In this document: piece after piece, positions 2,815 to 24,460 of the stretch
Position numbering within the stretch: position 1 is the stretch's first letter
Layout: every line of letters begins with the position of its first letter
DNA from: an uncultured Coriobacteriaceae bacterium
GTDB lineage: Bacteria > Actinomycetota > Coriobacteriia > Coriobacteriales > Atopobiaceae
Assembly (NCBI GenBank): GCA_902788705.1
Contig: CADALE010000009.1
Coordinates: 1,428 to 65,427, forward strand
Length of the DNA: 64,000 bases
Direction: 5' to 3'
The notes under the pieces: generated by a model
Told to the model about the DNA's origin: nothing
Seen by the model: the letters and a program-made list of their open reading frames with translations, nothing else
The model's database searches: none
Translations under genes and position numbers: made by a program

Positions 2815-3870
2815 ATGGCCGCACCTGCCCGCAGACGACTTGCCTACATCGACGCGCTCAACGTGATCGCAAGCTTCGCCGTCGTGATGCTACACCTCAA
2901 CTACTGCGTCTGGCTGGGACCGGAAGGCCCGTCTTGGGTATCGGCCATCATCATCGAGACCCTCTTCGTGTGGGCGGTGCCGGTCTTCTTCATGAACACG
3001 GGCACCACGCTCATGGACTACCGCAAGCGTATGTCCACGAAGGAGTTCTTCCGCCGCCGCTTCGAGCGCACCGTGGTGCCGTGGGTGTTCTGGAGCCTGA
3101 TGGGCCTTGCCTTCACCTGCTACCTAGCCAGCGAGTTTGGCACGGCCGAAATGCCCTACCTGGGGCCGCGCTCCATCTTCAACGACATCGCCGAAAGCAA
3201 GTACATCGAGTTCTACTGGTTCTTCCCGGCGCTCTTCTCGATGTACCTCTCGCTGCCGGTGCTGTCGGCCCTCAAGAACCGCGACAGCTCGTTTCGCTAC
3301 ATCATTGCCATGGGGATACTGTTCAGCGGGGTGCTGCCTTTGGTGGGCAAGCTGATAAACACGAGCTCGTTGGGGTCGTTCGCACCTCCCGTGGCCCTGG
3401 GCTATACCCTGTACGTGCTCATCGGCTACCAGCTTTCGCACTGGAAGCCCAGCCGGCAACAGCGCCTGGGCATCTACGCGGCGGGCGTGGTGGGCTGGCT
3501 GGCGCAGCTGGCAGGCACCATGGCGCTCTCGACGGTGGAGGCAGGCGTGTCCACCGTGTTCAAGGGGCAGTTCAGCCCCTTTGCCGTGGCGCAGGCGGTG
3601 GCCGTGTACGTGCTGGTGCGCCACGCCGGCATCGACGAGGCCATCGCGGCGCGGCCGGCGCTAGGCAAGGCTCTGCAGACCCTCTCGAGCGTGACCTTTG
3701 GCATCTACCTCATGCACTGGTTCGTGCTGCGCTGGGTGCAGAACACCATGGACCCCGACCCGCATGACCTCGCGTTTCGTCTGCTGGGCGCCTTCGCTAT
3801 CTACTGGCTGTGCGCCGGCTTCACCTTCCTGCTGAAGCGGATTCCGGTGGTGCGTCGCATCGTGCCGTAG
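2815..3870 (+). CDS. Acyltransferase family 3 (membrane O-acyltransferase, OatA/WecH-like)
   Basis: Polytopic membrane protein starting MAAPARRRLAYIDALNVIASFAVVMLHLN...ETLFVWAVPVFFMNTG, typical of acyltransferase_3. The ATG at 2815 is preceded by AAGGAG. The track ORF starts earlier, at the TTG at 2764. Confidence 0.85.
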   Translation: MAAPARRRLAYIDALNVIASFAVVMLHLNYCVWLGPEGPSWVSAIIIETLFVWAVPVFFMNTGTTLMDYRKRMSTKEFFRRRFERTVVPWVFWSLMGLAFTCYLASEFGTAEMPYLGPRSIFNDIAESKYIEFYWFFPALFSMYLSLPVLSALKNRDSSFRYIIAMGILFSGVLPLVGKLINTSSLGSFAPPVALGYTLYVLIGYQLSHWKPSRQQRLGIYAAGVVGWLAQLAGTMALSTVEAGVSTVFKGQFSPFAVAQAVAVYVLVRHAGIDEAIAARPALGKALQTLSSVTFGIYLMHWFVLRWVQNTMDPDPHDLAFRLLGAFAIYWLCAGFTFLLKRIPVVRRIVP

Positions 3871-4027
3871 GGCTACGCAGTGGCGGAACGTGTTGTCGTG
3901 GCGAACGTGCTCCGAGCACTTTCGCCATTTCAGCCCCCAGAATGGCGGTTTTGCTGGGAGCACATCCGCCACGGCGGACAGCGGTATCATAGAAAAGTTA
4001 GCCCATCGGCCAAAAAAGGAGCCGTAC

Positions 4028-5332
4028 ATGCCCACCGTCTATGTAGCCGTAGCCTCCGACGTCCTCCACGAGGGCATCATCAACGTGATCGCTGCCGCAG
4101 CCCAGCTGGGCGAGGTGACCGTCGGCTTGCTGACCGACGAGGCCATCGCCTCGTACAAGCGCCTTCCCCTCCTCGACTGGGACTCGCGCTTCCAGGTGTA
4201 CTCGGCGCTGCGCGACGTGTCCCGCGTCATCCGCCAAGACACGGTCTCGTACCGTGAGAACCTGCTTGCGCTGCGCCCCGACTTCGTGGTGCACGGCGAT
4301 GACTGGCTGGTGGGCCCGCAGAGCGCGGTGCGCCAAGAGGTCATCGACATCCTGGCCACGTGGGGCGGCCAGCTGGTGGAGGTGCCCTACACCAAGGGCG
4401 TGTCTGCCACCTCGCTGGAGCGCGACCTGCGCGCGCTGTACGGCTCGCCCGACAACCGGCGTGCCGCGCTGCGCAAGGCGCTGGCCCTCAAGCCATACCT
4501 CCGCGTAATCGAGGCCTCCAACGGCCTTGCGGGGCTGGTGGTGGAGAACGCCCGCTACGAGGACGAGGCGACCGGCGAGGTGCGCACCTTCGACGGCATG
4601 TGGGTGTCCAGCCTCTGCGACTCAACCTTCAAGGGCAAGCCCGACATCGAGCTGGTTGACTTCACAAGTCGCCTGGCCACCATCCAGGAGATCATGGACG
4701 TGACCACCAGGCCCATCATCCTTGACGGCGACACCGGCGGCAAGGTTGAGCACTTCGTGTACAACGTGAAGACGCTGGAGCGCGTGGGCGTGTCGGCCAT
4801 CATCATCGAGGACAAGACCGGCCTTAAGCAGAACTCGCTCTTTGGCACCGACCGCCCGCAGGTGATGGAGGACCCGCACGTGTTTGCCGAGAAGATCGCG
4901 GCCGGCAAGCGCGCCCAGCGCACGCGCGACTTCATGATCTTTGCCCGCATCGAGAGCCTCATCGCCGGCTTGGGCATTGACGACGCCCTCATGCGTGCCG
5001 ACATCTACCTGGGCGAGGGCGGCGCCGACGGCATCATGATTCACAGCAAGGACAAGTCGGGCACCGACATCCTTACCTTCCTTGCCCGCTTCCGCGAGAA
5101 GTGGCCGGACGTGCCCGTCATCCTGGTGCCCACCACCTACAACCACCTCACCGAACGCGAGCTTGCCGAGGCGGGCGCCAGCATCATCATCCACGCGAAC
5201 CACCTGCTGAGGGCCTCGTACATGGCGATGCGCGACGTGGCGGGAACCATCCTGGAGCACGGGCGCAGCCTGGAGGCCGACAGCATGTGCCTGCCCATCA
5301 AGGACGTGCTGGCCATCGTGCCGCAGCAGTAG
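4028..5332 (+). CDS. pepM: Phosphoenolpyruvate mutase with an N-terminal TagD-like cytidylyltransferase-fold domain
   Basis: PEP mutase signature EDK-x5-NS (IIEDKTGLKQNSLFG) in an isocitrate-lyase/PEP-mutase fold. The N-terminal ~135 aa resemble glycerol-3-P cytidylyltransferase (GDDW, GVSATS). The ATG at 4028 is preceded by AAGGAG. Confidence 0.9.
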   Translation: MPTVYVAVASDVLHEGIINVIAAAAQLGEVTVGLLTDEAIASYKRLPLLDWDSRFQVYSALRDVSRVIRQDTVSYRENLLALRPDFVVHGDDWLVGPQSAVRQEVIDILATWGGQLVEVPYTKGVSATSLERDLRALYGSPDNRRAALRKALALKPYLRVIEASNGLAGLVVENARYEDEATGEVRTFDGMWVSSLCDSTFKGKPDIELVDFTSRLATIQEIMDVTTRPIILDGDTGGKVEHFVYNVKTLERVGVSAIIIEDKTGLKQNSLFGTDRPQVMEDPHVFAEKIAAGKRAQRTRDFMIFARIESLIAGLGIDDALMRADIYLGEGGADGIMIHSKDKSGTDILTFLARFREKWPDVPVILVPTTYNHLTERELAEAGASIIIHANHLLRASYMAMRDVAGTILEHGRSLEADSMCLPIKDVLAIVPQQ

Positions 5333-5389
5333 GTACCAGGCAAGCCTGGGCGAAAACCCCGCGCCGCCAAGTATGGAAAGGACCGAACG

Positions 5390-6517
5390 ATGATTGATCC
5401 CAAGGCCTTCGTGGACCAGCTGGCCGCAAACGACGTCGACTTCTTCTGCGGCGTGCCTGACTCGCTGCTTAAGGAGCTGTGCTCGTGCGTGGTGGGGTCA
5501 CTGCCTGCCGATAGGCGTCTGACCTGCGCAAACGAGGGCAACGCGGTGGGCGTTGCCTGCGGCTGGCACCTGGCCACGGGCCACGCTGCCTGCGTCTACC
5601 TGCAAAACTCCGGCGAGGGCAACGTGGTGAACCCGCTGCTGTCCATCGCCGACCCCGACGTGTACTCCATCCCCATGGTGCTGGTGATTGGCTGGCGCGG
5701 TGAGCCGGGCGTGCACGACGAGCCCCAGCACGTGAAGCAGGGCAAGGTGACGCTCGGGCTGCTTGAGGCCATGGGCGTGCCCTACGTGGTGCTCGACGCC
5801 GACGGCGACTGGTCAAAGCAGGTGGATGCGCTGCTGGCCACCATGTGTGCCGACAGCCGGCCGGTGGCCCTGGTGGTTCGCAAGGGCACCTTTGCCCCCT
5901 ACCCCGGCGTCAAGCTGCCCAAGCGCTTCGTACTCTCGCGCGAGCAGGCGCTCGAGGCGGTGCTGGACGAGCTGGACGACAACGACCTCGTGGTCTCCAC
6001 TACGGGCAAGACCAGCCGCGAGGTGTTCGAAATCCGCGAGCGCCGCGGCCAAGGCCACGCGAACGACTTCCTCACGGTGGGTGGCATGGGGCACACCAGC
6101 TCCATCGCCCTTGGCCTCGCGCTTGGGCAGGACCATGACGTGTGGTGCCTTGACGGCGACGGCTCGTTCCTCATGCACATGGGGGCCTTCCCCGTGTCGG
6201 CCGCCGTCGCGCCCGCGAACTTCCACTACGTGGTCAACGACAACGGCGCCCACGAGAGCGTGGGCGGCCAGCCCACCGTGGCCTTGGACGCCGACGTCCC
6301 GGGCATCCTGCGCGCGTCGGGCTTTGACCAGGTGATTGAGGCCACGACGGCCGACGAGATCCGCCGCGCCATGGCCATGCTTCGCACCAGCGCACGCTCT
6401 GCGCTGGTCATCTATACCGATCCCGGCTCGCGCGACGACCTTGGCCGCCCAACCACCACGCCACAGCAGAACAAGCAGGCCATGATGGAGCTCATCGGAT
6501 CGAGCAGGGAGGCATGA
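5390..6517 (+). CDS. ppd: Phosphonopyruvate decarboxylase (ThDP-dependent)
   Basis: The N-terminus MIDPKAFVDQLAANDVDFFCGVPDSLLK and the ThDP motif GDGSFLMHMG...NDNGAHESVGG match AepY/Ppd-type decarboxylases. It lies immediately downstream of pepM. Confidence 0.9.
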   Translation: MIDPKAFVDQLAANDVDFFCGVPDSLLKELCSCVVGSLPADRRLTCANEGNAVGVACGWHLATGHAACVYLQNSGEGNVVNPLLSIADPDVYSIPMVLVIGWRGEPGVHDEPQHVKQGKVTLGLLEAMGVPYVVLDADGDWSKQVDALLATMCADSRPVALVVRKGTFAPYPGVKLPKRFVLSREQALEAVLDELDDNDLVVSTTGKTSREVFEIRERRGQGHANDFLTVGGMGHTSSIALGLALGQDHDVWCLDGDGSFLMHMGAFPVSAAVAPANFHYVVNDNGAHESVGGQPTVALDADVPGILRASGFDQVIEATTADEIRRAMAMLRTSARSALVIYTDPGSRDDLGRPTTTPQQNKQAMMELIGSSREA

Positions 6518-8382
6518 TGAAGGTCATCATCTTCAACTCTGGCCTGGGAAGCAGGCTTGGCTCGCTTACCGCCAACCGCCCCAAGTGCCTCGTGCAGCTT
6601 GCGAGCGGCGAGACCATCCTGCACCGTCAGCTGCGCGTGCTTACAAGCTGCGGCCTGCGCGACTTCGTCATTACCACCGGCCCCTTTGCCCAGCTGGTGG
6701 AGGCCGAGGCGCGCGCCTTCGAGGCATGCGGCTGCACCTTCGCGTTTGTGCGCAACGAGCGCTATCAGGAGACCAACTACCTGCACTCGCTTTGGCTTGC
6801 GCGCGACGAGCTGCGCGGCCATGACGTGCTGATGCTTCACGGCGACCTCGTGTTTGACGCTTCCTACGTGCAGGGCTTGCTGGACTCGCCCGAGCCGTGT
6901 CTGGGGTCGGTAAACCCGGCCCTGCCGCTGCCCGACAAGGACTTCAAGGCGCGCGTCGTGGACGACGAGGTGCGCGAGGTAGGCGTGGGCATCTTTGGCG
7001 ACGACTGCCTGACGTTCCAGGCCCTCTACAAGCTGTCTGCCGAGGCGGTGGGCATCTGGCTGGACGAGATTGGGCGCTTCGAGGAGCGCGGCGAGACGGG
7101 CGTGTATGCCGAGAACGCCGCCAACGTGGTGTTTGGCCAGATGCACGTGCGCACCCACTCCTATGAGGGACACTACGTGGAGGAGGTGGACACGCCGGAG
7201 GACCTCGCGCGCGTGTCGGCCGGCATCCGCGCGATGGACTTCGCAAGCCAGCCCGTGTTTGAGGTTTGCGACGAGGGGCTTGAGCTGGTGGAGGGACGCA
7301 CCTATGGCGCGCTGGCCACTGCCCACAGCCTCGCTGACCTGGTGTCCGCCCTTGGCATGCGGCGGCCCCTCGTGGTGGTGGACGGGTACTTTGCCGAGCG
7401 GCTTGACGCGATTTGCGATGGCTCGCTGGTGGGCAGTCCCACGTTTGCGGGCTACGCGCCCAACCCCACCTACGAGCAGATCCTTGACGGCATCGCGGCG
7501 TTCCGCGCGGCCGGGTGCGACGGCGTGGTAAGCGTGGGCGGCGGCAGCTCCATCGACGTGGCCACGTGCATCCGCCTGTGGGCTCCCCTGCCGGGCGACG
7601 GCCGTGACCCGCGCTTTGCCGAGCTGGACCAGCAGCCCATGACGACGGTCCCCCATCTGGCCATCCCCACCACCGCGGGCACGGGCTCGGAGTCAACCCA
7701 CTTCGCGGTGATGTACCTTGACGGACGCAAGCTCTCCATCGCGCAGGAGAGCGCGCTGCCCAGCGTTGCCGTGCTCGACTCGCGCCTGCTTGCGGGACTT
7801 CCCGCCTACCAGCGCGCCTCCACCTTCCTGGACGCGCTTTGCCAGGCCGTCGAGTCGCACTGGTCGGCACGCTCGTGCGACGCGAGCCGCAGCTACTCGT
7901 CGCGCGCCATCCCGGCGCTCATGGGCAACGCCCGTGAGTATCTGGCAGGTGACGCCGACGCCGCGCATGCCGTCATGCGTGCGGCCAACCTGGCGGGCAA
8001 GGCCATCAACGTTACCACCACCACGGCACCGCACGCCCTGAGCTACAAGCTGAGCTCGCTCTACCACATCCCGCACGGCCATGCCGTGGCGCTGACGATG
8101 GCAGCGTGCTGGAAGCTGTTGCTTGAGCAGGGCGACGAGGCCACGCAGGAGCGCCTCACCGAGATTGCGCAGCTCATGACCGCCCGCGCCGATGCCCAGG
8201 CACACGATGGCCTGGAGGCGTTCGAGGAGCTGCTTGCCTCGCTTGACCTGCCAACGACGCCGCATCCCACCGAGGAGGAGCTGGAGCAGCTGGTGACCAG
8301 CGTGAACGTGCAGAGGCTGGCCAACTTCCCGCTTACGCTCTCGCCTGAGACGATACGGAGCATCTACCAGCAGCTTGCCTAG
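6514..8382 (+). CDS. Bifunctional fusion: LicC/PntC-like nucleotidyltransferase (N-terminal) plus iron-containing alcohol dehydrogenase (C-terminal, candidate phosphonoacetaldehyde reductase)
   Basis: N-terminal MKVIIFNSGLGSRLGSLTANRPKCLV carries the G-x-G-S-R-L nucleotidyltransferase motif. The C-terminal half has Fe-ADH motifs GGGSSIDVATC and PHGHAVAL. ATGA overlap with the ppd stop, and AGGGAGG RBS. Confidence 0.85.
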   Translation: MMKVIIFNSGLGSRLGSLTANRPKCLVQLASGETILHRQLRVLTSCGLRDFVITTGPFAQLVEAEARAFEACGCTFAFVRNERYQETNYLHSLWLARDELRGHDVLMLHGDLVFDASYVQGLLDSPEPCLGSVNPALPLPDKDFKARVVDDEVREVGVGIFGDDCLTFQALYKLSAEAVGIWLDEIGRFEERGETGVYAENAANVVFGQMHVRTHSYEGHYVEEVDTPEDLARVSAGIRAMDFASQPVFEVCDEGLELVEGRTYGALATAHSLADLVSALGMRRPLVVVDGYFAERLDAICDGSLVGSPTFAGYAPNPTYEQILDGIAAFRAAGCDGVVSVGGGSSIDVATCIRLWAPLPGDGRDPRFAELDQQPMTTVPHLAIPTTAGTGSESTHFAVMYLDGRKLSIAQESALPSVAVLDSRLLAGLPAYQRASTFLDALCQAVESHWSARSCDASRSYSSRAIPALMGNAREYLAGDADAAHAVMRAANLAGKAINVTTTTAPHALSYKLSSLYHIPHGHAVALTMAACWKLLLEQGDEATQERLTEIAQLMTARADAQAHDGLEAFEELLASLDLPTTPHPTEEELEQLVTSVNVQRLANFPLTLSPETIRSIYQQLA

Positions 8383-8405: not shown

Positions 8406-8438
8406 CAGGCCCGCCACCTCGTAAGGGTGGCGGGCCTG
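8406..8438. terminator. Bidirectional GC-rich hairpin between the convergent operons
   Basis: caggcccgccacc (8406-8418) / ggtggcgggcctg (8426-8438), a 13-bp perfect stem with a 7-nt loop. It lies between the stops at 8382 (+) and 8465 (-). Confidence 0.6.
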
Positions 8439-8464: not shown

Positions 8465-10489
8465 CTAATGCTGCTTGGGCTCGGCAGCCTCGTTCTGCAC
8501 GGGGATGGGTGCCGGCTGGGCAGGCTCGTGGCTGAGCGCGATGTCCTCGCGCAGCATCTCAACCTCCTTGCTCAGCATGCCGATGCCCATCGTAAGGGAG
8601 TGCAGCTCATCGGCAAAGTGGTAGGCCGCCTCGAGCGGGATGGTGATGTTCACCACCGCCTGCGAGCCCTCGGCCGGCAGGTTCTGCAGGGCGATCGAGA
8701 GTGCCTTCGTGAGGTCGTCAGGCGCGTCGTCAGATGCGGCTTGGTCGTCTCCCTCAGACTCGTCACCTGCGGATTCGTCCTCATGGGACTCATCCTCCTG
8801 GGACTCGTCTTCCTTAGGTTCGTCGTCGCCGTCGCCTGCCGATTCGTCTCCGTCGTCCTCGGGCTGCTCCTCGCCACCCTCGGTCTGCTCATCACCCTCG
8901 GTCTGCTCATCGCCCGCAGCATCAGCGGAATCACCGTTTTCGCCCTGCGCGCCATCTTCGGCGTCAGACGAATCTCCGTCCTCGGGCTGCTCGTCGCCAC
9001 CCACAGGGGTATCCTCGCCCTCTTCGGCGTCCGCCTCCGATGCAGGGGGCACCTCCGCTGGCTCAACCTCATCGGCCGCCGCCTCCTGCGGCGTCTCCTC
9101 GACCTCGGGGATATGCAGGTTCATCGTGGAGCCTGCCTGCGACTCTGCGGCCTCCGACTCCTCGTCATCCTCGGGCACCCATGCGATATGGCGTGGCGCG
9201 ACCTCGCCATCCTCCCCATGAGCCGGAGGTGGCGTGACCGGCGAGGGCTGGCCTGTCAGCTGGGCATGCTTGGCCACCAGATAGTCAACCGTAAGCTTGG
9301 CGGCGCGGCCCGGGCATGCCCAAGCCTCCTCGCGCGCACGCGCACGACCGGCCGCAAGGCCCTCGTCGGCAATGACGGCCTCGATCACCTGGCGCATGCG
9401 CGGGAACTGGTCCTCGGACAGGGGCACGCCAAAGGTGGGGTAGGTCTCGAAGCGCCACTGCGGCTTGTCGTACCAAGCAGCGTCGTACAGCGAGCTGTCA
9501 TAGTTGGCAGGCGTGTAGATGACGGGACGGTCAAACACGAGCGCGTAGTCGAAGATGACGCCGGAGAAGTCGGTGATCATGACGTCTGCCTCGGCCAGGC
9601 ACTCGAAGTTGTCGTTGTCGAAGTTCCACGAGACACGCTGCCCGTCGGGGTACTTTTTCATGAGGCGCTCAAGCACCTCGGAATCGGAGGTGCGTGACTG
9701 CGGGTGCGGGCGAATCGTGAGGGCGAAGCCTGCATCAAGGATGGCATCAATCAGGCGCTCGCCATACACGGAGAGGATGGCATTGGGACCCCACGAGGGG
9801 GCAAGCAACACCGAGATGCCGCTGTGATAGCGCCGGTCGCCTTCGCGCGCAAGGCGCGCGGACATGGCGTCGAGGTAGGTGGAGCCCACCGTGACCAGCT
9901 CCTTGTGCGGCAGGTTACGCACATCCTCGATGGTGCGAATCTCGTCCACCTGGTACTCGCCGGCCAGCAGCACCGAGTCGTAGTAGTCCATGCCAAACAT
10001 GCGATAGCCCAGCGCCGTGCCCACCGTGTGGAAGGTATGCACGTACCAGTCCACGTCCTTGGAGCGCTTCCACTGGTACACGTCGAGGCCGGGCGTCGTG
10101 GCCAGGCACACCGTGGCGCTCATCAGGTTAAGCCGCGCGAAGGCCTTGTTCTCCTCGCCGATGAACTCGGCCTTGACGTGGCGGTACGGCTCGTTGAGCG
10201 CCGGGTCATCGGGCGAGGCCGTCCAGTAGGCCACGTCGATGCCACGGCTCTCGAACTCGTCGCAGATGGGCTTGAACACGTTCCAGTACTGCTTGCCGTC
10301 GGTGAAGATGACATAGGGCAGCTTGTTGGTGGGCACCGACCCCTTGGCCGTGCCGCCACTCGCGGCAAACTTCATCTTGATGGCCAGCTGCCTCAGCGAG
10401 AAGTAGGCCGTGGACACCACGCCGATGAACAGCGTGAACAGCATGCTGCCCGTACCGGGGTCGATATAGCGAGAGAGCTGCGTGAACAT
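8465..10489 (-). CDS. CDP-glycerol glycerophosphotransferase family (TagB/TagF-like) with an N-terminal TM helix and a ~180-aa polyacidic C-terminal extension plus a terminal helical module
   Basis: Core resembles TagF: LLAPSWGPN, IRPHPQS, VMITDFSGVIFDYALVFDRPVIY. The tail runs ...EDDEESEAAES...GDEQTEGDEQTEGGEEQPEDDGDESAGDGDDEPKEDESQEDESHEDESAGDESEGDD. GGAGG RBS before the ATG at 10489. Confidence 0.85.
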   Translation of the reverse strand: MFTQLSRYIDPGTGSMLFTLFIGVVSTAYFSLRQLAIKMKFAASGGTAKGSVPTNKLPYVIFTDGKQYWNVFKPICDEFESRGIDVAYWTASPDDPALNEPYRHVKAEFIGEENKAFARLNLMSATVCLATTPGLDVYQWKRSKDVDWYVHTFHTVGTALGYRMFGMDYYDSVLLAGEYQVDEIRTIEDVRNLPHKELVTVGSTYLDAMSARLAREGDRRYHSGISVLLAPSWGPNAILSVYGERLIDAILDAGFALTIRPHPQSRTSDSEVLERLMKKYPDGQRVSWNFDNDNFECLAEADVMITDFSGVIFDYALVFDRPVIYTPANYDSSLYDAAWYDKPQWRFETYPTFGVPLSEDQFPRMRQVIEAVIADEGLAAGRARAREEAWACPGRAAKLTVDYLVAKHAQLTGQPSPVTPPPAHGEDGEVAPRHIAWVPEDDEESEAAESQAGSTMNLHIPEVEETPQEAAADEVEPAEVPPASEADAEEGEDTPVGGDEQPEDGDSSDAEDGAQGENGDSADAAGDEQTEGDEQTEGGEEQPEDDGDESAGDGDDEPKEDESQEDESHEDESAGDESEGDDQAASDDAPDDLTKALSIALQNLPAEGSQAVVNITIPLEAAYHFADELHSLTMGIGMLSKEVEMLREDIALSHEPAQPAPIPVQNEAAEPKQH

Positions 10490-10504: not shown

Positions 10505-13500
10505 CTAGTCCAGCAAGGTCCAGCAGTTGGGGTCAAAGATGTTGTCGTGCACGCTGTACCAGTGACCGCCCTCGTAGTTGAAGGTGGTGCCCGTCTGCTC
10601 GGCGGTGCGCCACTGCTCCGAGGAGTTGACCAGCACGTCTCCGTCATACTTGACCTGGTTGTTTATGGGCTGACCCGTAAACGGGTTGATGGGGTCGTAC
10701 ACGATGTCGCGCAGCGCCAAGGTGGGCGTGTCGGCATTGGTCATGAACTCGTACGAGGTCTCAAAGCCAGTCTGGCCAAAGTCCTTGACCATGAAGATGG
10801 GGTTGACGCTCTCGGCATTGAAGGAGTCGTCCACGCGCATCCAGGGGAACTGCCCCAGCGTATGGCCGTGGTCGGACACGATGATCACACGCGTGTTGTC
10901 CCAGCACCCCTGCTCTCGCAGGTAGTCGAACCACTCGCCCAGCCTCAGGATGGCCGCCATGTTGGACATGTAGTGCCGGTAGTGGAAGTCGTTGTTCATG
11001 TTGATGGTGCGCCCGTCAATCGTGAAGACGCTCGTGTCGAGGTACTGGGTGTTGTCGATGTAGAGCGACGGCACGTAGTCGGGCATCTGCAGCAGCTCGG
11101 GCGTATGTGTGGTCTGGTTGTCGATGAAGACGAAGTGGTCCTGCGCACCATCTTGCACCGACGTGATGGTGGGCATGGCCGCAAGTACGCTGTACCAGCT
11201 CAGGAACTCGTTGTTGATGGAACGGCGTCCCACGTATCCCGTGAGGAGCTGCTCCTGGAAGGCGGCATCGGCCTGGGCCTGCGCGGCCTCTGCGGCTGCA
11301 GCGGCCGCGGCAGCCTCCTCCTCGGTCATCTCCACAGGTACCTCGGGCTCGGCCTCAGGTGCCACGTATTCGGTCACGAAGAGGCTGGTCACGCTCACGC
11401 CCGCCATCCGCTGGGAAAGCAGCGTGATGCCTCGCGACTCTGCAGTGGCAACCGCAGTCGGCGCAATGACGGGCTGCTGGCGCTCCACCTCGATGGCGTC
11501 AGGGGCGGCGAGGTAGCTTCCGCCGTCGTAGATGGCCTGCTGGGCAAAGGTGGGCACCGTGCGGAAGATGGCGTACCAGCACAGGTTGCGCTTGAAGCGC
11601 TGGGCATTCTCGGCCAGTGCCTGGTCGAGGTCGAAGTCGGCGCCCTCGCCACTCTGCTTCGCGGCCAGCACGGTTGAGTACCAGCGCGTATAGGCTCCTG
11701 CGGTGTGGTAGACGCTCACGTTGGGAATGCCGTCAAAGAGCGAGTAGTCGTCCGTGTAGTAGTTGTAGCCCACAAGGGCCGGGTCGAACATGGTCACGTC
11801 AAAGCCTGCCTGCGAGAACAGCGTGGGCAGCACGCGCAGCGCCTCGCCCTGCTTGTCCACCAGATACTCCTCGAAGCGCTCGTCGGAGATGTACGGCACG
11901 TACTCGTAGCCGCCATACAGGCCCGGCGACCCAAACACCGTCTTCAGGCCGAACGACAGGGTGTTGGGATAGTAGGTGAAGCCATCGTACATCGAGGCTA
12001 TCTCGGGCTTCTCCTTCATGAGATAGGGCAGGTAGCCGCTGATGCCGCGGTCAAGGAAGACGATCACCACGTTGCGACCGTCGCGCGAGAGGTTGACGAT
12101 GGGCTGGGGGTTTCCCTCCTCGTCGAAGGGCACCTCCGTCGTTGCCTGATGCCAGAAACCGGCATCCTCCTGGGAGGTCTCCTCGGTGGGCTGCTCGTCA
12201 GATGCGTAGTCGCCTTCGCCCTCGAGCACCCAGTCAGGCGCACCCTCCTCCTGTGACGAGCCCCCGTCGAGTGTTGGCTCCACCACCACGGCAGGCTCAT
12301 CCTCGTTCTGGGCAGCCTGGTCCTGGGCCACGTCATCCTGCCCGGACGCGTCGGAGCCCTTCTGGGACCCAACCTGCACGGTTGAGGAGGCCGCATCCGT
12401 GAGCGTGACCACGGCACGCACGTTGGGCACCGCAAGGAACACGAGGCCCGCGCACATGATGGCCAGAAGCGGGTTCACCAGCTGCTGGCCACGCTTCCAC
12501 AGCACCGAGAACACGACGCACACGGCAGCAACCACGCCCAGGTTGAGCATGATGGAGGCAAGGTCGAAGACCGGACGGTACTCGTACACGAGGTCAGCGC
12601 CCAGGATGCCAAAGCCCTGGCCAAAGAAGAAGTAGCCCACCAGCGAGACCACGGCCAAAAGCGACAGGCCGAAGGAGATGGTGCGCCTGCCCGCCTCGTC
12701 GGACAGGTAGAGGTAGGTGCCCACCCACAGCACGAACAGGCCAAAGAACACGCAGCCCGTATGCAGCACGAACTGCAGCTGGTCGTCGTAGCCGTTGGCA
12801 CTCACGAACTCCTTGGGCGACGAGCCGATGAGCGCTGAGGGCACCAGCACGCCAAGCAGCACGAACAGCAGCAGCGCCGCCAGCAGGAACGTGACCACTG
12901 GGGTGGTGCCTCCGTCGGGATGCAGGCTGTGCCGAGGCTTCCATCCGAACAGCGACGCAAGGATGGGCCAGTCCACCAGCACGAAGCCAAGGGTGACCAG
13001 CAGGCCACCGCCAAAGGTGGTGATGGCGTCCGAGCCGATGAGGTAACCCCATGCCCACACCAGCGCCACCTGCACCAAGATGCCAAACACGAGCTGCGGC
13101 CGCTTGAGCACCTTGAGGAACAGGTTCTTGACCAGCGAGAACACCTGATTGCACGTCCAGTAGAACACGAGGCCCGAGGGGCTTTGGTACAGCAGCACCA
13201 AAAAGACCAGGGCCAGGCCATAGGCCTGCAGCTTGTCGCGCAGCGGCAGGTCGCGCGTGTACACAAAGGTGGACACGCAGTTGAACAGCGTCATCAGCAG
13301 CGGCATCAGGTTGAGCGTGAGGCCGCCGAGCTTGATGAGCTGGTCAGGGGCGCCAAGGTCGTTGAGGAACAGAAACGACGCGCCCTGAAGCGCCGTCGCG
13401 CTGGAGAGGTAGCTGTATGCCGCCATGAACACGGGAATCTGAAGCAGCAGCGATACCGACCCGTTGAGCGCATAGATGGGCTTGTAGCCCTGCTGACGGT

Positions 13501-13780
13501 AGTAGGTGGACAGCATCATGTACTGCTCGTCACCCTTGAACGACCGCTTGATCTGCGCCACGCGGTCGGCCATCTTGGCCTGGCGGGCACGCTCCTCGTC
13601 CTGCATGCGGTCAGCCATGCGATAGAGGGGCAGGCACAGGAAGTTGACCACCAGGCTCACGCCAACCAGGGCAAGACCGGGATCCTGCAGCAGGCGGCAG
13701 AAGAGGGAGAACGCGAGGTCCACGATGTAGACCAGCGGCATAACCACGATGTCGTAGAGCATTGAGAGCAGAGTGGCCAT
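10505..13780 (-). CDS. Fusion protein: YidC/Oxa1-like membrane domain + additional TM segments + acidic linker + extracytoplasmic alkaline-phosphatase-superfamily (LtaS/sulfatase-like) domain (paralog 1)
   Basis: N-terminal MATLLSMLYDIVVMPLVYIV...LPLYRMADRMQ...QYMMLSTYYRQQGYKPIYALNGSVSLLLQIPVFMAAY...SGLVFYWTCNQVFSL aligns by eye with the YidC core. The C-terminal part has VVIVFLDRGISGY and RVIIVSDHGHTLGQF (AP-superfamily metal-site motifs). I chose the ATG at 13780; the track ORF starts at 13861. Confidence 0.8.
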   Translation of the reverse strand: MATLLSMLYDIVVMPLVYIVDLAFSLFCRLLQDPGLALVGVSLVVNFLCLPLYRMADRMQDEERARQAKMADRVAQIKRSFKGDEQYMMLSTYYRQQGYKPIYALNGSVSLLLQIPVFMAAYSYLSSATALQGASFLFLNDLGAPDQLIKLGGLTLNLMPLLMTLFNCVSTFVYTRDLPLRDKLQAYGLALVFLVLLYQSPSGLVFYWTCNQVFSLVKNLFLKVLKRPQLVFGILVQVALVWAWGYLIGSDAITTFGGGLLVTLGFVLVDWPILASLFGWKPRHSLHPDGGTTPVVTFLLAALLLFVLLGVLVPSALIGSSPKEFVSANGYDDQLQFVLHTGCVFFGLFVLWVGTYLYLSDEAGRRTISFGLSLLAVVSLVGYFFFGQGFGILGADLVYEYRPVFDLASIMLNLGVVAAVCVVFSVLWKRGQQLVNPLLAIMCAGLVFLAVPNVRAVVTLTDAASSTVQVGSQKGSDASGQDDVAQDQAAQNEDEPAVVVEPTLDGGSSQEEGAPDWVLEGEGDYASDEQPTEETSQEDAGFWHQATTEVPFDEEGNPQPIVNLSRDGRNVVIVFLDRGISGYLPYLMKEKPEIASMYDGFTYYPNTLSFGLKTVFGSPGLYGGYEYVPYISDERFEEYLVDKQGEALRVLPTLFSQAGFDVTMFDPALVGYNYYTDDYSLFDGIPNVSVYHTAGAYTRWYSTVLAAKQSGEGADFDLDQALAENAQRFKRNLCWYAIFRTVPTFAQQAIYDGGSYLAAPDAIEVERQQPVIAPTAVATAESRGITLLSQRMAGVSVTSLFVTEYVAPEAEPEVPVEMTEEEAAAAAAAAEAAQAQADAAFQEQLLTGYVGRRSINNEFLSWYSVLAAMPTITSVQDGAQDHFVFIDNQTTHTPELLQMPDYVPSLYIDNTQYLDTSVFTIDGRTINMNNDFHYRHYMSNMAAILRLGEWFDYLREQGCWDNTRVIIVSDHGHTLGQFPWMRVDDSFNAESVNPIFMVKDFGQTGFETSYEFMTNADTPTLALRDIVYDPINPFTGQPINNQVKYDGDVLVNSSEQWRTAEQTGTTFNYEGGHWYSVHDNIFDPNCWTLLD

Positions 13781-13932: not shown

Positions 13933-16611
13933 CTAGTCGAGGCGCTGCCAGTTGGACTCCTCGAAGATGTCATCGTGCACGGAGTAGACATGCGCGTCGT
14001 AGGTGTCGAAGGTGGTGCCCAGCTGGTAGGCGGAGGTATCCCAGAACAGCGACGTGTTGGTCTGCTGGGGGCGCGCCCACTTGGCATCGGAGGTCATCGC
14101 GTTTCCCGTGAAGGGGTTGACCGGGTTGTCCATGATGCCCGAAAGCGCCAGCAGCGGCGCGTCGGCGTTGGTCATGAACTCGCGCGAGGTGGAGAGCGCA
14201 CCCGTTGCGCCGAAGTCCTTCACCATGAGCAGCGCCGAGACACCCTCGACGTCCAGCTCGTCATCGTCAAATACGAGCTGGGGGAACTGCCCGAACTGGG
14301 CGCCATGGTCGGACACCACGATGATGCGCGTGTTGTCGTAGACGCCCTGCTCGCGCATCCAGTCGAACCACTCCCCCAGACGCAGCAGCGCAGCCATGTT
14401 GGTGTAGTAGTGCGTAGTGCCATCTGGCCCCAGGTTGATGGTGAGACCGTCCACCGTCATGCCGTCAACGCCCTCGAACGCCGAGTTGTCCACGTACAGG
14501 CTGGGCACACAGTCGGGCATCTGCACGTCGTCAGGGTTATGCGTGCAGAGGTTCTCCATGATAAGGAAGTTGTCGGAGGAGTCGTCGGACACCTGCGTGA
14601 GCGGGGTGAGGTTGGCGAGCACCGCGTAGTAGTCGATGAATCCCGAGCTCACCGAATGGTTGACGGCCGTGGAGAGGTAGGCACCGTCGTCGTAGAGGGC
14701 ACCGCGCAGCCCGGCAGGCATGCACTTGAAGAGGCTGTACAGGCACAGGTTGCGGGGAAACACCTGCTTGATGACCGTCTGATACTGCTCGGACACGAAC
14801 GCGTTGTACGCGCCAGCGGTGTGATAGACGTCAAGGTAGGGCGTGTCGTCAAAGATAGCGTAGCCCGCCTCGCCCCACTGGTAGTCGCATAGCGGCGGGT
14901 CGAAGAGCGTGGCGGTGAAACCAGCCTGGTAGAAGAGCGTGGGCAGCACCTTGAGCGCCTCGTTGTGCTTGTCCCTGAGCAGCATGTCGGAGCGCTCGTT
15001 CATCTCCTGGAACATGTACTCGTAGCCCCCGTAGATGGCAGGGGACCCAAACACGGTGAAGCGCCCGGAGGCAAGCGTGTTGGGATAGTAGGTAAACCCA
15101 TCGAAGGCGGCGGCCACATCGTGGCGCTGCTGCATGATGAAGGGCACGTACTCGCTGATGGCACGGTCAAGGAACAGCACCACCACGTTGCGCCCCTGGG
15201 TAGACAGGGTGACGAGCGGCACGATGGAGCCCTCGTCGTCCACCAGCTGATGAACGGTGCCGTAGGGCTGGGCCACGACGGCTGGCGCATCCTCAGCCAC
15301 CTGGGCCTCGGCCACCGCAGCGACATCGGGAAGCATGGAGGCCTTGACCTCCTCGGTGGCAGCGTAGATGCCGCGCACGTTAACCGTGCAGAGGCCCAAG
15401 ATGGCAATCAGCAGCACCGACAGCACGGGAGCGAGCAGCCGCGGCCGCAGTCGCCCCACGGCCAGGATGGCCGCGACCACGACGACGAGCGCCACGATGT
15501 TGGAGGCTACCTCCGATGCCTCGTACACGGGGGCTGTCTCAAAAGAGAGGCTGGAGGTGATGATGCCCAGGTCATGCCCGGGCAGGAAGAAGTCGCAGAG
15601 GAAGATGCCAAGCAGCACACAGAGCGCCAAGGCAAGCGCGCGGCGGCCATGTGCACCCGCAAGCGCGTAGTACACGCCCAGCCAGAGGACGAAGAGGCCG
15701 ACGAACACGCTGAGGGTGTGCACGAGGTGCCAGAGGGGGTTGACGAAGTCGTTTACGTTGATGAACTCGGTAGGTGCGCTCGCGATGAGCGCAGACGGAA
15801 TGAGCAGGCCCGTTACGAGGGCGATCGAGCAGGCGGCCAGGAGGAAGGCAGGACCGGGGATGGCCGGGGCCTCCTTGTCCGCAGCCGACGCATGGCGGAG
15901 CTCGACCGCGGCCGCCAAGGCGGGCGGCAGCGTGAGGCCCTCGCGCGGCACGAGGTTGCGTAGCAGCGAGAACACCTGGTTGCACGTCCAATACAGCACA
16001 AGCCCCGAGGGACTGCGATACAGCAGCACCAAGAACACGAGGGCCAGGCCATAGGGCTGCAGCTTCTCCTTGAGGCTCATGCCCCGCGTGTACACCGCGG
16101 TCGAGACCGCATTGAGGGCCGTCATGATCAGTGGCAGCACGTTGACGGTGGTGGTGCCCAGCGCAAGGAACGCGTCAGGCTCGCCCAGGTTGGGGATGCC
16201 CAGAAACGACGCGTGATGCAGCAGCTCCAGGTTGGAGAGGTAGGCATAGGCCGCCATGAAGAAGGGGATCTGCAGCAGCAGCGATACCGAGCTGCGCAGC
16301 GCATAGATCGGCCGGTACCCCTGCTGGCGGTAGTAGGTCGAGAGCATCATGTACTGCTCGTCGCCGCTGAAGCTGGACTTGATGTGGCTTACCCAGCGCG
16401 CAAGCGACGCCTGGCGCTCGCGCTCCTCGCGCTGCAGCCGGTCGGCCATGGCATAGAGCGGGGTGCTGAGCACGCTGACCACCAGGCTTACGCACACGAT
16501 GGCCAGACCGGGGTTTGCCACCAGGCGGTTTGCCAGCGAGAACGTGAGCTCGATAACATACACGAGGGGCGTGATCACGAGGTCATACGCAATGCCAGGC
16601 AACCGTCCCAT
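13933..16611 (-). CDS. Fusion protein: YidC/Oxa1-like domain + polytopic region + alkaline-phosphatase-superfamily domain (paralog 2)
   Basis: MGRLPGIAYDLVITPLVYVIE...TPLYAMADRLQ...QYMMLSTYYRQQGYRPIYALRSSVSLLLQIPFFMAAY...; C-terminal VVVLFLDRAISEY and RIIVVSDHGAQFGQF. The architecture is collinear with the neighbouring gene. The ATG at 16611 lies 8 nt after the upstream stop. The track N-terminal extension is R/P-rich and overlaps the upstream gene. Confidence 0.8.
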   Translation of the reverse strand: MGRLPGIAYDLVITPLVYVIELTFSLANRLVANPGLAIVCVSLVVSVLSTPLYAMADRLQREERERQASLARWVSHIKSSFSGDEQYMMLSTYYRQQGYRPIYALRSSVSLLLQIPFFMAAYAYLSNLELLHHASFLGIPNLGEPDAFLALGTTTVNVLPLIMTALNAVSTAVYTRGMSLKEKLQPYGLALVFLVLLYRSPSGLVLYWTCNQVFSLLRNLVPREGLTLPPALAAAVELRHASAADKEAPAIPGPAFLLAACSIALVTGLLIPSALIASAPTEFINVNDFVNPLWHLVHTLSVFVGLFVLWLGVYYALAGAHGRRALALALCVLLGIFLCDFFLPGHDLGIITSSLSFETAPVYEASEVASNIVALVVVVAAILAVGRLRPRLLAPVLSVLLIAILGLCTVNVRGIYAATEEVKASMLPDVAAVAEAQVAEDAPAVVAQPYGTVHQLVDDEGSIVPLVTLSTQGRNVVVLFLDRAISEYVPFIMQQRHDVAAAFDGFTYYPNTLASGRFTVFGSPAIYGGYEYMFQEMNERSDMLLRDKHNEALKVLPTLFYQAGFTATLFDPPLCDYQWGEAGYAIFDDTPYLDVYHTAGAYNAFVSEQYQTVIKQVFPRNLCLYSLFKCMPAGLRGALYDDGAYLSTAVNHSVSSGFIDYYAVLANLTPLTQVSDDSSDNFLIMENLCTHNPDDVQMPDCVPSLYVDNSAFEGVDGMTVDGLTINLGPDGTTHYYTNMAALLRLGEWFDWMREQGVYDNTRIIVVSDHGAQFGQFPQLVFDDDELDVEGVSALLMVKDFGATGALSTSREFMTNADAPLLALSGIMDNPVNPFTGNAMTSDAKWARPQQTNTSLFWDTSAYQLGTTFDTYDAHVYSVHDDIFEESNWQRLD

Positions 16612-19688: not shown

Positions 19689-19715
19689 GGTGCTCCTCTT
19701 GTCCGTCGTTGTACC

Positions 19716-21152: not shown

Positions 21153-21306
21153 ATCTACGAACGGCCTCCCCCAAAGGCAGGCCATCGATAGTCCTGCCCA
21201 GGTCGGACGCCACCACCGTCCCATGTGAGGCGGCGATGGCCTGCGCCAGCTTGGCAACCTTGGCCACGACGTCGCCCTGCGCACCCATCGACTGGCTCTC
21301 GCCCAA
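21118..21306 (-). other. RBS-led 62-codon ORF in a different frame, overlapping the GT4 5' end. Possibly the displaced N-terminus of the GT4 gene (frameshift), or a small upstream ORF.
   Basis: TTG at 21306 is preceded by AAGGAG at 6-nt spacing. The first ~35 codons have coding-like GC3 (GGC GAG AGC CAG TCG ATG GGT GCG CAG GGC GAC GTC GTG GCC AAG...). A C5/G5 run at 21168-21172 sits where the coding signal switches frame. Confidence 0.35.
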
Positions 21307-21371
21307 GGTTCACTCCTTCATGTTATGCCGCCCGCCCAAGGCCTCCCGGCAATCGCCCAGGCCTCGGCAGG

Positions 21372-24458: not shown

Positions 24459-24460
24459 GG

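Follow-up and report, generated by a model that had tools for sequence, protein, structure and literature searches.

The window analyzed here is a stretch of 64 kb, carrying on its + strand (positions 2815-8382) a four-gene operon that encodes a membrane acyltransferase, a PEP mutase (Ppm), a phosphonopyruvate decarboxylase (Ppd) and a 622-aa protein that joins a LicC/PntC-like nucleotidyltransferase to an Fe-dependent alcohol dehydrogenase (ADH). The host of the cassette is a gut-type actinobacterium. As noted in an earlier, sequence-only reading of this DNA, the operon is headed by an acyltransferase-3 gene (Acyl_transf_3, 2815-3870, +, 351 aa; PF01757, E = 1.5e-31); its ATG at 2815 agrees with the 351-aa gene call in L081-L083, contigs nearly identical to the window.

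A second set of genes, on the - strand, converges on the operon. Nearest to the operon lies a gene for a 674-aa TagF-like (Glyphos_transf) membrane protein (8465-10489); the protein has an acidic tail at its C-terminus, matches PF04464 over a partial span of ~90 residues (35.3 bits; GA 22.1) and has no significant match in the PDB. Beyond it are a 1091-aa protein with a YidC-like (60KD_IMP) N-terminus and an alkaline-phosphatase-superfamily, sulfatase-like C-terminus (10505-13780; PF02096 + PF00884; best PDB match 2w8s, E = 7e-6, in the SDHG region only) and an 892-aa paralogue with 41% identity to it (13933-16611; PF02096, weak PF01663). The starts of both genes were set with the help of gene calls in the near-identical contigs. 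Pfam scans place glycopolymer genes at 16620-25630, encoding a GT2+DUF4422+GT8 protein (16620-19688), a GT4 (19716-21284), a UDP-galactopyranose mutase (21372-22556), a GT1 (22560-24686) and a GT2 (24461-25630). Between the convergent operons is a GC-rich inverted repeat, GGCCCGCCACC-tcgtaag-GGTGGCGGGCC (8408-8436), which is terminator-like without a T tract; it is absent from the output of the terminator scan because the scan demands a T run.

The PEP mutase ORF spans 3890-5332 (+), with its true start at ATG 4028 behind a Shine-Dalgarno sequence (AAGGAG). The resulting 434-aa protein (4028-5332; PF01467 + PF13714) is of the bifunctional type, with a cytidylyltransferase (CyTase) domain preceding the mutase domain (about 4460-5329; PF13714; PDB 5unc, E = 2.8e-42). 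EDKTGLKQNS, read at 4808-4837, is an instance of the EDKxxxxxNS motif that defines PEP mutases (PMC6697681), and the protein scores 359.5 bits against TIGR02320 (cut-off 319.55). The ThDP-dependent Ppd (5390-6517, +, 375 aa; TPP_enzyme_N + TPP_enzyme_C) scores 420.1 bits against TIGR03297 (cut-off 312.5) and carries the ThDP motif GDG...NDN at 6155-6244. Both are NCBIfam equivalog models, and with both cut-offs exceeded the two proteins belong to the families that the sequence-only reading had named. The ATGA overlap by which it coupled the fusion to ppd can be read directly (ATG 6514-6516, TGA 6515-6517), with GGGAGG at 6507-6512.

The fusion gene (6514-8382, +) starts with the LicC/PntC-like domain (aa 1-245, 6514-7248; PF12804, PF00483), in which the NTP_transf_3/NTP_transferase match spans aa 3-125; its best PDB match is LicC (1jyk, E = 4.7e-9), and Tde1415 (6pd1) matches with E = 2.5e-5. 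A Group III (Fe/Zn) ADH makes up the remainder (aa about 263-622, 7300-8382; PF00465 + PF25137), with the Fe-ADH + ADH_Fe_C match spanning aa 270-620 and matches to PDB 8zrl and 6jko/6jkp at E = 1e-31 to 1e-33. Its NAD and metal site is complete, comprising GGGSSID (7537-7557), TTAGTGSE and the metal ligands D440, Q444, H507 and H521; GGGSSID and PHGHAVAL (8071-8094), the two motifs on which the domain had originally been recognized, are both present.

We found 57 loci, from Clostridia, Bacteroidales, Actinomycetota, Spirochaetes, Chloroflexi, Thermoplasmata and Promethearchaeota, that share the PntC, CyTase, Ppm, Ppd and ADH modules in shuffled fusions, arranged as [CyT-Ppm][Ppd][PntC-ADH], [PntC-CyT-Ppm][ADH][Ppd] or [Ppm][Ppd][ADH][PntC]. 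Across these 57 loci, Ppm and Ppd have the ADH fused or adjacent to them, and the protein database contains over 100 full-length PntC-ADH fusions.

Y511 of the ADH domain is the equivalent of PhpC Tyr264, a tyrosine reported to be strictly conserved in, and diagnostic for, PhpC-type phosphonoacetaldehyde (PnAA) reductases (PMC13576164); in the sulfoacetaldehyde reductase 6jkp this position is instead occupied by Phe. Y511, K406 and R601 all recur in 55/56 cassette-linked and 23/23 lone ADH homologues (78/79). Counting against a PhpC-type assignment, the score of the domain against TIGR03405 (phosphonate-associated Fe-ADH), 121.9 bits, is under the 423.7 cut-off and no better than that against a lactaldehyde reductase model (130.4 bits). 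From the PhpC-type signature and the gene context, we infer that the domain is a PhpC-type PnAA reductase.

Such enzymes double as HEP (2-hydroxyethylphosphonate) dehydrogenases in degradative clusters (PMC13576164), and 23 ADH homologues in our scan occur without Ppm and Ppd, five of them adjoining a PhnX-like phosphonatase; the family therefore appears to handle HEP/PnAA in catabolic settings too. This raises the alternative that the genes are catabolic, with the ADH oxidizing environmental HEP, or that they make a diffusible small-molecule phosphonate rather than a surface decoration. We consider this very improbable: Ppm and Ppd are biosynthetic, the window contains no PhnX, PhnA, PhnY or C-P lyase and none of the peptide-ligase, NRPS or export genes that usually accompany phosphonate antibiotics, and nucleotidyl activation, LicD/TagF-type transferases and neighboring glycosyltransferases suggest attachment to a polymer.

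That the cassette yields HEP rather than AEP, as originally proposed, is supported by the conservation of Y511, K406 and R601, by the linkage to Ppm and Ppd across the 57 loci and by the absence of an aminotransferase. Pfam/NCBIfam scans of every ORF with coding-like GC3 found no aminotransferase in the window (1-64000), in agreement with the sequence-only reading, and none is encoded in the additional ~3.7 kb of upstream sequence that L081 provides, where an adjacent AEP transaminase had been a concern. AEP is nevertheless the commonest outcome of Ppm-Ppd pathways (56% of neighborhoods; PMC8942020), and AEP clusters occur in A. rimae and O. uli, two related Coriobacteriia from the mouth (PMC6697681). 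The PntC-like pocket also retains an acidic residue, E200, aligned with the amine-contacting D192 of LicC, whose counterpart in Tde-PntC is E196 by the equivalence of Rice et al.; the sequence alone thus leaves room for an amino substrate. With 64 kb of the genome visible, the pathway could conceivably end in 2-AEP or another phosphonate by way of a transaminase or tailoring enzyme encoded elsewhere, the ADH serving as a side or salvage activity. This is improbable given that the ADH shares a polypeptide with an activating enzyme and that its translation is coupled to that of Ppd. Moreover, AEPT-type Aminotran_5 is no regular neighbor of related cassettes (outside the 25 commonest families among 112 ORFs near 50 cassettes), and no HEP-consuming oxygenase or radical-SAM genes adjoin the operon.

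The N-terminal CyTase of the PEP mutase (aa 1-134, about 4028-4432; PF01467) is of the Fom1 type (PDB 5x3d, E = 2e-43), so the cassette has two nucleotidyltransferase domains, not one. The sequence-only reading, which assigned activation of HEP to the LicC-like domain, was right that this domain is present and overlooked the second. PntC makes CMP-AEP and Fom1 makes CMP-HEP; Fom1 is the sole enzyme demonstrated to do so (PMC6697681). Where Fom1 has HPGH, the window CyTase has HEGI (4067-4078), a variant of the HxGH motif with the second His changed to Ile; catalysis is described as depending critically on both His residues (PMC6060094). HxG(I/V) replaces HxGH in 113/121 close homologues, and of the more distant homologues counted, 47/48 retain HxGH. 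Since the second His is lost in its clade, the window CyTase is probably impaired or repurposed. The decay of CyTase motifs coincides with the presence of PntC: in addition to HxG(I/V) in the window clade, TxG(I/V/L)S is missing from all 30 PntC-CyT-Ppm triple fusions, and both motifs have the Fom1 form in 5/6 loci without PntC.

A different division of labor has the Fom1-like CyTase still making CMP-HEP, with the LicC-like domain activating another head group for the same polymer or the two domains taking successive intermediates. (Phosphocholine, another phosphonate and a sugar phosphate are among the head groups that would suit the LicC-like domain on this view.) In its favor, besides the match to Fom1, conservation indicates that the CyTase is under purifying selection (mean identity 66% vs 75% for Ppm; ≥97% conservation at 34/135 positions; YTKGVSAT retained), and such a well conserved domain may remain a working HEP cytidylyltransferase. 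HxGH is also intact in more distant [CyT-Ppm][Ppd][PntC-ADH] loci, suggesting that two active enzymes coexisted ancestrally, and pairs of nucleotidyltransferases are a common, unexplained feature of AEP clusters as well (PMC6697681, PMC8942020). Against the lost CyTase motifs, however, stands a PntC domain invariant at every catalytic position (G10, G12, R14, K24, H109-G110-D111, E200, E224 and D226) across 76 homologues. PntC is joined to the predicted HEP-producing enzyme here and to Ppm in other lineages, which is best fit by the pathway's own product as its substrate, as in Tde1415, and scans of the window turned up neither a choline kinase nor another head-group pathway. We therefore regard continued CMP-HEP synthesis by the CyTase as rather unlikely, and activation of HEP by the LicC-like domain, as first suggested, as the better supported assignment.

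The TagF family uses CDP-activated donors and releases CMP, and the TagF-like protein of the window is a candidate CMP-HEP:acceptor phosphonyltransferase. Its homologues adjoin the cassette in eight loci (L006, L016, L025, L031, L042, L070, L080 and L084), and LicD-like ORFs, which likewise represent CMP-releasing transferases, occur in 23/57, fused to PntC-ADH in L084, L003 and L005. Glycosyltransferases and sugar-nucleotide enzymes predominate among the 112 ORFs near 50 cassettes. Transfer onto the glycopolymer of the convergent operon, also part of the sequence-only reading, gains support from the convergent TagF-like gene and from L031 (a Clostridiales MAG), in which the cassette is preceded by three paralogues of the 1091-aa YidC-sulfatase-like protein and followed by a homologue of the TagF-like gene at 45% identity, all co-directional. 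Among the fetched loci, BLAST matches to the acyltransferase gene are confined to L081-L083, and Acyl_transf_3 proteins account for 5/112 ORFs near other cassettes, one being L081's own copy; from adjacency in close relatives only, this enzyme might O-acylate the same polymer.

Taken together, we propose that Ppm would convert PEP to phosphonopyruvate and that Ppd would decarboxylate this to PnAA, pulling the unfavorable mutase equilibrium. The ADH domain would reduce PnAA to HEP with NAD(P)H, and the LicC/PntC-like domain, by analogy with Tde1415 and from its fusion to Ppm or LicD elsewhere, would couple HEP to CTP, giving CMP-HEP; the Fom1-like CyTase could represent a second, ancestral route to this product. 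The TagF-like protein would then transfer hydroxyethylphosphonyl to a hydroxyl group on a polymer that contains galactofuranose and is made by the neighboring glycosyltransferases, or on its lipid-linked precursor. The + strand operon is thus likely to be a phosphonyl-tailoring cassette that provides CMP-activated HEP for a cell-envelope glycopolymer, a reading supported computationally, with product, nucleotide and acceptor all predicted. The chemistry and pathway logic are already published; the PntC-reductase fusion layout is not previously described, and may be viewed as an analogue of the PntC-transaminase fusion Tde1415.

The phosphonate cassette that the sequence-only reading had placed at 2815-8382 is real: four co-directional genes with the proposed domains were defined there from ORFs with high third-position GC (the window is ~65% GC). 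The first (2815-3870, +) encodes an Acyl_transf_3 protein (PF01757, E = 1.5e-31), the second (4028-5332, +) a 434-aa protein joining a cytidylyltransferase-like domain (CyTase) to a PEP mutase (Ppm; TIGR02320, 359.5 bits, cut-off 319.55), and the third (5390-6517, +) a phosphonopyruvate decarboxylase (Ppd; TIGR03297, 420.1 bits, cut-off 312.5). The fourth (6514-8382, +) encodes a 622-aa fusion of a LicC/PntC-like nucleotidyltransferase (NTP_transf_3/NTP_transferase match at aa 3-125, domain ~1-245), here called the PntC domain, with an iron-dependent alcohol dehydrogenase (ADH, aa 270-620). Direct reading of the DNA confirms the translational coupling of the fusion to ppd through an ATGA overlap, with a GGGAGG Shine-Dalgarno sequence, and the starts of the cassette genes agree with the gene calls of three nearly identical metagenomic contigs (L081-L083). 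A GC-rich hairpin (8408-8436) parts the cassette from a convergent operon, and the partial ORF at the left window edge encodes a U32 peptidase-family protein. Promoter/terminator, Rfam and tRNA scans returned nothing bearing on the cassette operon.

The family assignments for the first two enzymatic steps are firm, and both had been recognized from the sequence. The Ppm protein carries EDKTGLKQNS at aa 261-270 (4808-4837), an instance of the catalytic motif EDKxxxxxNS that distinguishes Ppm from other isocitrate-lyase superfamily members and is present in 121/121 homologues; the next-best family model, phosphonopyruvate hydrolase, scores only 143 bits (cut-off 374). The thiamine diphosphate (ThDP) motif of Ppd (6155-6244) reads GDGSFLMHMGAFPVSAAVAPANFHYVVNDN, in agreement with a GDG-x(24-27)-NN type pattern. 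Residues 1-134 of the Ppm protein match the crystallised CyTase domain of Fom1 (PDB 5x3d, E = 2e-43), a Streptomyces fosfomycin enzyme shown to convert 2-hydroxyethylphosphonate (HEP) and CTP to CMP-HEP (PMC6697681); Rice et al. (PMC6697681) found a PF12804 and/or PF01467 nucleotidyltransferase joined to about 60% of Ppm proteins. The cassette thus has two nucleotidyltransferase domains. The LicC-like domain that the sequence-only reading had found fused to the reductase is present, but this second, Fom1-like domain on Ppm was overlooked, and it is the Fom1-like domain, not the LicC-like one invoked for activation, that has direct precedent for CMP-HEP formation.

The ADH domain has the expected fold and site motifs (PF00465 and PF25137; GGGSSID, TTAGTGSE), and its nearest solved relatives are the methanol dehydrogenase 8zrl and 6jko/6jkp; 6jkp is a sulfoacetaldehyde reductase that served as the structural reference for the HEP dehydrogenase PhpC (PMC13576164). 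Residues D440, Q444, H507 and H521 align with the 6jkp metal ligands, which in PhpC are Asp191, His195, His260 and His274 (PMC13576164). Tyr264 of Paraburkholderia fungorum PhpC, predicted to hydrogen-bond the phosphonate, is strictly conserved in PhpC and replaced by Phe in sulfoacetaldehyde reductases (PMC13576164); the window protein has Y511 four residues past H507, aligned to the 6jkp Phe. PhpC is also described as clamping the phosphonate through Lys157/Arg349 salt bridges (PMC13576164), and K406 and R601 stand at clamp-like spacing from the metal ligands, a correspondence mapped by spacing only. Y511, K406 and R601 are invariant in 29 fusion homologues and, among the matches listed in the genome scan, conserved in 55/56 cassette-linked and 23/23 lone homologues. 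Counting against this signature, the domain scores only 121.9 bits against TIGR03405, the phosphonate-associated Fe-ADH model of the PsrA group (cut-off 423.7), and 130.4 against lactaldehyde reductase. Because PhpC enzymes are reported to be highly divergent (PMC13576164), the TIGR03405 miss excludes only the PsrA subgroup; our PhpC-type assignment was made by the published diagnostic residues. Five lone ADH homologues among the matches listed adjoin a PhnX-like phosphonatase (TIGR03351, 180 bits; TIGR01422, 112 bits), which is the catabolic PhpC arrangement (PMC13576164), and the ADH family thus appears to act on the HEP/phosphonoacetaldehyde pair in biosynthesis and degradation alike. For the window we considered and rejected a catabolic role, since it encodes Ppm and Ppd but neither PhnX nor PhnA or PhnY. 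From this signature and its gene context, the ADH domain is predicted to use NAD(P)H to reduce phosphonoacetaldehyde to HEP (EC 1.1.1.309).

As the sequence-only reading had claimed, the window lacks an aminotransferase: a domain scan of all coding-like ORFs of the 64 kb found none. In L081, which extends ~3.7 kb further upstream, only peptidase U32, NifU and one partial gene at the contig end are encoded.

The PntC domains, whether fused to ADH or to Ppm, form one subfamily in which N8, S9, G10, G12, R14, K24, H109-G110-D111, K142, D143, K145, Y198, A199, E200, E224 and D226 are invariant (76/76). These include the GxGxR(L) loop, the Lys and the Asp/Glu-x-Asp metal ligands (G10, G12, R14, K24, D111, E224, D226), with E224 and D226 aligned to E216 and D218 of LicC. 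The head-group pocket was judged by D105/D192 and the aromatic box of LicC and by E104/E196 of Treponema denticola PntC. E200 aligns with the amine-contacting LicC D192, A199 stands for LicC W191, and H109-G110-D111 can be set against LicC D105-A-D107 in registers 1-2 residues apart. With one acidic contact kept and the register of the other ambiguous, the pocket residues were dropped as arbiter between HEP and 2-aminoethylphosphonate (AEP). The PntC domain is predicted to form a CMP-phosphonate in a CTP-dependent manner.

The CyTase domain departs from the HxGH signature, with HEGI at aa 14-17 where Fom1 has HPGH. Across the window protein and its 120 closest homologues (64-99% identical; the named ones from Eggerthellaceae, Gordonibacter and Adlercreutzia), HxG(I/V) is found in 113/121 sequences and HxGH in only 8; both histidines are described as critical for catalysis in the superfamily (PMC6060094). 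The second, RTEG(I/V)ST(S/T)-type signature is retained (YTKGVSAT, aa 121-128; YTPGISST in Fom1), mean identity is 66% for the CyTase domain and 75% for the Ppm domain, and 34/135 CyTase positions are ≥97% conserved. Since it is conserved and keeps its second signature, the domain is not a decaying remnant; these sequence features point to an enzyme either catalytically altered or repurposed.

Full-length NTP_transf_3-Fe-ADH fusions occur in more than 100 database clusters, a few with an additional C-terminal LicD domain, and are named in the sources only “iron-containing alcohol dehydrogenase”; the window fusion protein itself has no exact match on record. A scan of genome contigs recovered at least 80 loci, drawn mainly from distant relatives and not from the closest Coriobacteriia genomes, and among the matches listed Ppm and/or Ppd accompany an ADH homologue in 57 of the 84 loci compared. 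The window arrangement, [CyT-Ppm][Ppd][PntC-ADH], recurs in Propionibacteriaceae, Yeguia hominis, a Muribaculaceae MAG, a Thermoplasmata archaeon and others. A [PntC-CyT-Ppm] triple fusion with separate ADH and Ppd occurs, among the matches listed, in about 30 Clostridia and Bacteroidales of rumen or gut, six listed loci have [CyT-Ppm][Ppd][ADH] without PntC, and the archaeal loci L073 and L077 have [Ppm][Ppd][ADH][PntC]. The recurrence of the five modules in such varied fusion states strongly supports their joint action in a single pathway.

The state of the CyTase domain varies with the position of PntC. Among the matches listed, the TxG(I/V/L)S signature is lost in 30/30 triple fusions, and both signatures are Fom1-like in five of the six loci truly without PntC; where PntC is on a separate ORF, the motif state is mixed. 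A strict rule by which the presence of PntC means a dead CyTase was rejected, as 11 separate-PntC loci keep HxGH, six of these keep both motifs, and the window CyTase domain is itself still well conserved. Signature loss in the triple fusions, together with HEGI in the window clade, suggests that PntC is the dependable HEP activator and that the CyTase may be dispensable for catalysis where PntC is present, a trend rather than a rule.

Coriobacteriia, Clostridia and Bacteroidales of gut and rumen commonly carry the cassette family, cultured carriers being Yeguia hominis NSJ-40 (L004), Gordonibacter sp. An230 and Adlercreutzia sp. ZJ304. It extends to the archaea, where Thermoplasmata and Promethearchaeota MAGs have it (L007, L073, L077). 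L007 has exactly the window architecture at ~34% identity, which implies transfer between the domains among anaerobes of gut or sediment. In a Propionibacteriaceae MAG, a large ORF directly downstream of a PntC-ADH-LicD fusion (L003:12771-17375) matches PntC, ADH and LicD more weakly and looks like a tandem duplicated, diverged copy. Another locus encodes an ADH homologue and a LicD-like domain in one ORF (L013:9884-11878) with no Ppm/Ppd within 10 kb; salvage of exogenous HEP, or biosynthetic genes elsewhere, are possible explanations.

The convergent operon encodes, in order, a TagF-like protein, two YidC-like/sulfatase-like membrane proteins, a GT2-DUF4422-GT8 protein, a GT4, a UDP-galactopyranose mutase, a GT1 and a GT2, with GH25 muramidases, one bearing CWB2 repeats, farther along. 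GT2, DUF4422 and GT8 are combined in a single 1022-aa protein (16620-19688, -), followed by the GT4, UDP-galactopyranose mutase, GT1 and GT2 genes; the gene set suggests a galactofuranose-containing polymer. The muramidase genes (25748-28090, -; 28123-28962, -) adjoin this glycopolymer locus, and the larger product carries three CWB2 repeats, a wall-binding domain type for anionic secondary wall polymers. A HEP-modified polymer could be the ligand of this muramidase. Elsewhere in the window, coding-like ORFs without a Pfam match at E ≤ 1e-4 encode proteins of 228 and 705 aa (45910-48503, -), upstream of Tad/type II secretion-like genes (T2SSE and T2SSF at 50-53 kb), and of 386 aa (32103-33263, +).

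Enzymes of the LicD and TagF families use CDP-activated donors and release CMP. Among the matches listed, LicD-like ORFs occur in 23 of 57 cassette loci, often abutting the cassette, and TagF-like ORFs related to the window protein flank it in eight; in L084, L003 and L005 a LicD domain is fused to PntC-ADH itself. The window TagF-like protein scores 35.3 bits against PF04464 (gathering threshold 22.1), with only aa 244-335 matched, and a PDB search gave no significant match for it. Its C-terminal ~240 aa (8465-9200, -) form a long, highly acidic tail of low complexity in which D/E, G, S and Q abound, with no domain match. The L084 locus is teichoic-acid-like: it contains Stealth, a pair of Glyphos_transf genes, a TarI/TarJ-like fusion and genes for an ABC-2 transporter. 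The Clostridiales MAG L031 carries an unbroken, co-directional run of three YidC-like/sulfatase-like genes, the cassette and a TagF-like gene with 45% identity to that of the window, so that parts convergent in the window are linked across phyla.

The two YidC-like genes of the window (10505-13780, -; 13933-16611, -) are paralogues of ~900-1100 aa with a YidC/Oxa1-like (60KD_IMP) N-terminus, many TM segments and a C-terminal, divergent alkaline-phosphatase-superfamily domain; three such paralogues lie directly upstream of the HEP cassette at L031:3-7807. The best PDB match of the C-terminal domain is the phosphonate monoester hydrolase 2w8s (E = 7e-6), across the SDHG motif only, and these proteins may act on a phosphonate ester outside the cell.

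A Pfam census of 112 mid-sized ORFs within 6 kb of 50 cassettes was dominated by glycosyltransferases and sugar-nucleotide enzymes. It also contained five Acyl_transf_3 proteins (one being the L081 copy of the operon’s own acyltransferase), four Glyphos_transf proteins, four DegT-type sugar aminotransferases and two class I/II aminotransferases. Aminotran_5, the AEP transaminase family, was outside the 25 most frequent census families and thus has at most two members there. Polyprenyl-phosphate glycosylphosphotransferases, Wzx, Wzm-type permeases, WecB, IspD/TarI-like enzymes and an ABC ATPase also recur beside the cassettes. The ATPase, of the nitrate/taurine/AEP-transporter type (best NCBIfam model SaoA, 224 bits; PhnT2, 191 bits), is near the cassette in 12 loci among the matches listed, including L057:1087-1869 and L041:566-1540; the window has no copy.

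Taken together, we infer, as the best supported model, a pathway in which Ppm would convert PEP to phosphonopyruvate, Ppd would decarboxylate this to phosphonoacetaldehyde, and the ADH domain would reduce the aldehyde to HEP. The PntC domain of the same polypeptide would then form CMP-HEP, the Fom1-like domain providing an additional route that is probably weakened, and the TagF-like protein would pass the hydroxyethylphosphonyl group on to a wall polymer containing galactofuranose or to the lipid-linked precursor of that polymer. The TagF-like enzyme might instead polymerise CMP-HEP through the free hydroxyl of HEP, giving poly(hydroxyethylphosphonate) or a mixed chain, a scheme we regard as very improbable. 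Its product would be a teichoic-acid analogue with C-P bonds in the backbone, resistant to phosphodiesterases, which the YidC-like/alkaline-phosphatase-superfamily proteins would export or move to the wall and which would serve as anionic ligand of the neighbouring CWB2-domain muramidase; the HEGI CyTase on Ppm would in this scheme be a CMP-phosphonate-sensing regulatory pseudoenzyme. 

Under the preferred reading, transfer of HEP to a glycopolymer, HEP-modified wall polymers would be frequent among gut anaerobes. The logic from PEP to HEP and CMP-HEP was already published (PMC6697681, PMC8942020); HEP is the branch point in 8.5% of ppm neighbourhoods, and nucleotidyl activation is predominant in phosphonate biosynthesis (PMC6697681 / PMC8942020). 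Our literature search, with most subscription journals beyond its reach, found no paper on a PntC-reductase fusion, an HxG(I/V) CyTase clade or HEP in Coriobacteriia. Bacterial surface phosphonates are widespread in genomes and chemically almost uncharacterised, HEP is a major, unexplained part of environmental organic phosphorus, and why many phosphonate clusters have two nucleotidyltransferases is still a question in the field. CyTase-Ppm and PntC-ADH offer a compact, self-contained protein pair for reconstituting CMP-HEP formation, and a natural experiment in which one of two cytidylyltransferases lacks a catalytic His; the recurrent link to LicD/TagF-type transferases nominates candidates for the missing phosphonyl-transfer step.

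Among known systems, the cassette shares its first three enzymes with the Streptomyces fosfomycin pathway (Fom1/Fom2/FomC), including the N-terminal PF01467 domain of Ppm, and the predicted intermediates are alike (phosphonopyruvate, phosphonoacetaldehyde, HEP, CMP-HEP; PMC6697681). The cassette differs in lacking Fom3, Fom4 and FomD-type tailoring genes, in the HEGI of its CyTase, in the extra LicC-like nucleotidyltransferase on its ADH and in its setting among cell-wall glycopolymer genes of an anaerobe-type Coriobacteriia genome rather than in an antibiotic cluster. With PhpC, FomC, DhpG, AglG and the degradative PhpC of P. fungorum the ADH shares the PF00465 fold, a D/(H or Q)/H/H metal site, the Tyr (Y511) four residues past the first metal His, and clustering with ppm and ppd, and its conserved Lys and Arg could clamp the phosphonate; it is distinguished by its fusion to a nucleotidyltransferase, a score far below the TIGR03405 cut-off and Gln instead of His as second metal ligand, as in 6jkp.

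The LicC/LicD phosphocholine and TagD/TagF teichoic acid systems follow the same logic, cytidylyl activation of a small phosphoryl head group and CMP-releasing transfer to a wall polymer, and LicD and TagF homologues adjoin the cassette or form fusions with it; in the window a TagF-like gene is present and LicD is absent, and the donor would be CMP-HEP, a phosphonate anhydride that would leave the polymer with a phosphonate monoester. HEP-bearing phosphonoglycans are known from Stackebrandtia nassauensis and Glycomyces sp. (Yu et al. 2014, cited in PMC8942020), and the predicted end product of the cassette would likewise be an actinobacterial HEP-decorated glycan, a likeness at the level of the product; the window organism, its taxon read from the names of homologues (Atopobiaceae, Eggerthellaceae, Gordonibacter, Adlercreutzia), belongs to a different, gut or rumen type class, the Coriobacteriia.

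The closest architectural precedent is Tde1415 of Treponema denticola (PDB 6PD1), which with Ari-PntC represents the phosphonyl tailoring (Pnt) pathway (Rice et al. 2019, PMC6697681). Tde1415 is a 624-aa PntC-AEP-transaminase that makes CMP-AEP, and the 622-aa window fusion follows the same logic, an N-terminal LicC-like cytidylyltransferase joined to an enzyme that turns phosphonoacetaldehyde into the head group. Fusion of Ppm to a second nucleotidyltransferase and LicD or glycosyltransferase neighbours are further likenesses. The window PntC domain is distant from that of Tde1415 (6pd1, E = 2.5e-5) and belongs to its own tightly conserved subfamily, marked by NSG for AAG before GxR, by H109 and by A199 for the LicC Trp. 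The C-terminal domain is an Fe-ADH and not a class V aminotransferase, and with this replacement the head group would be HEP rather than AEP.
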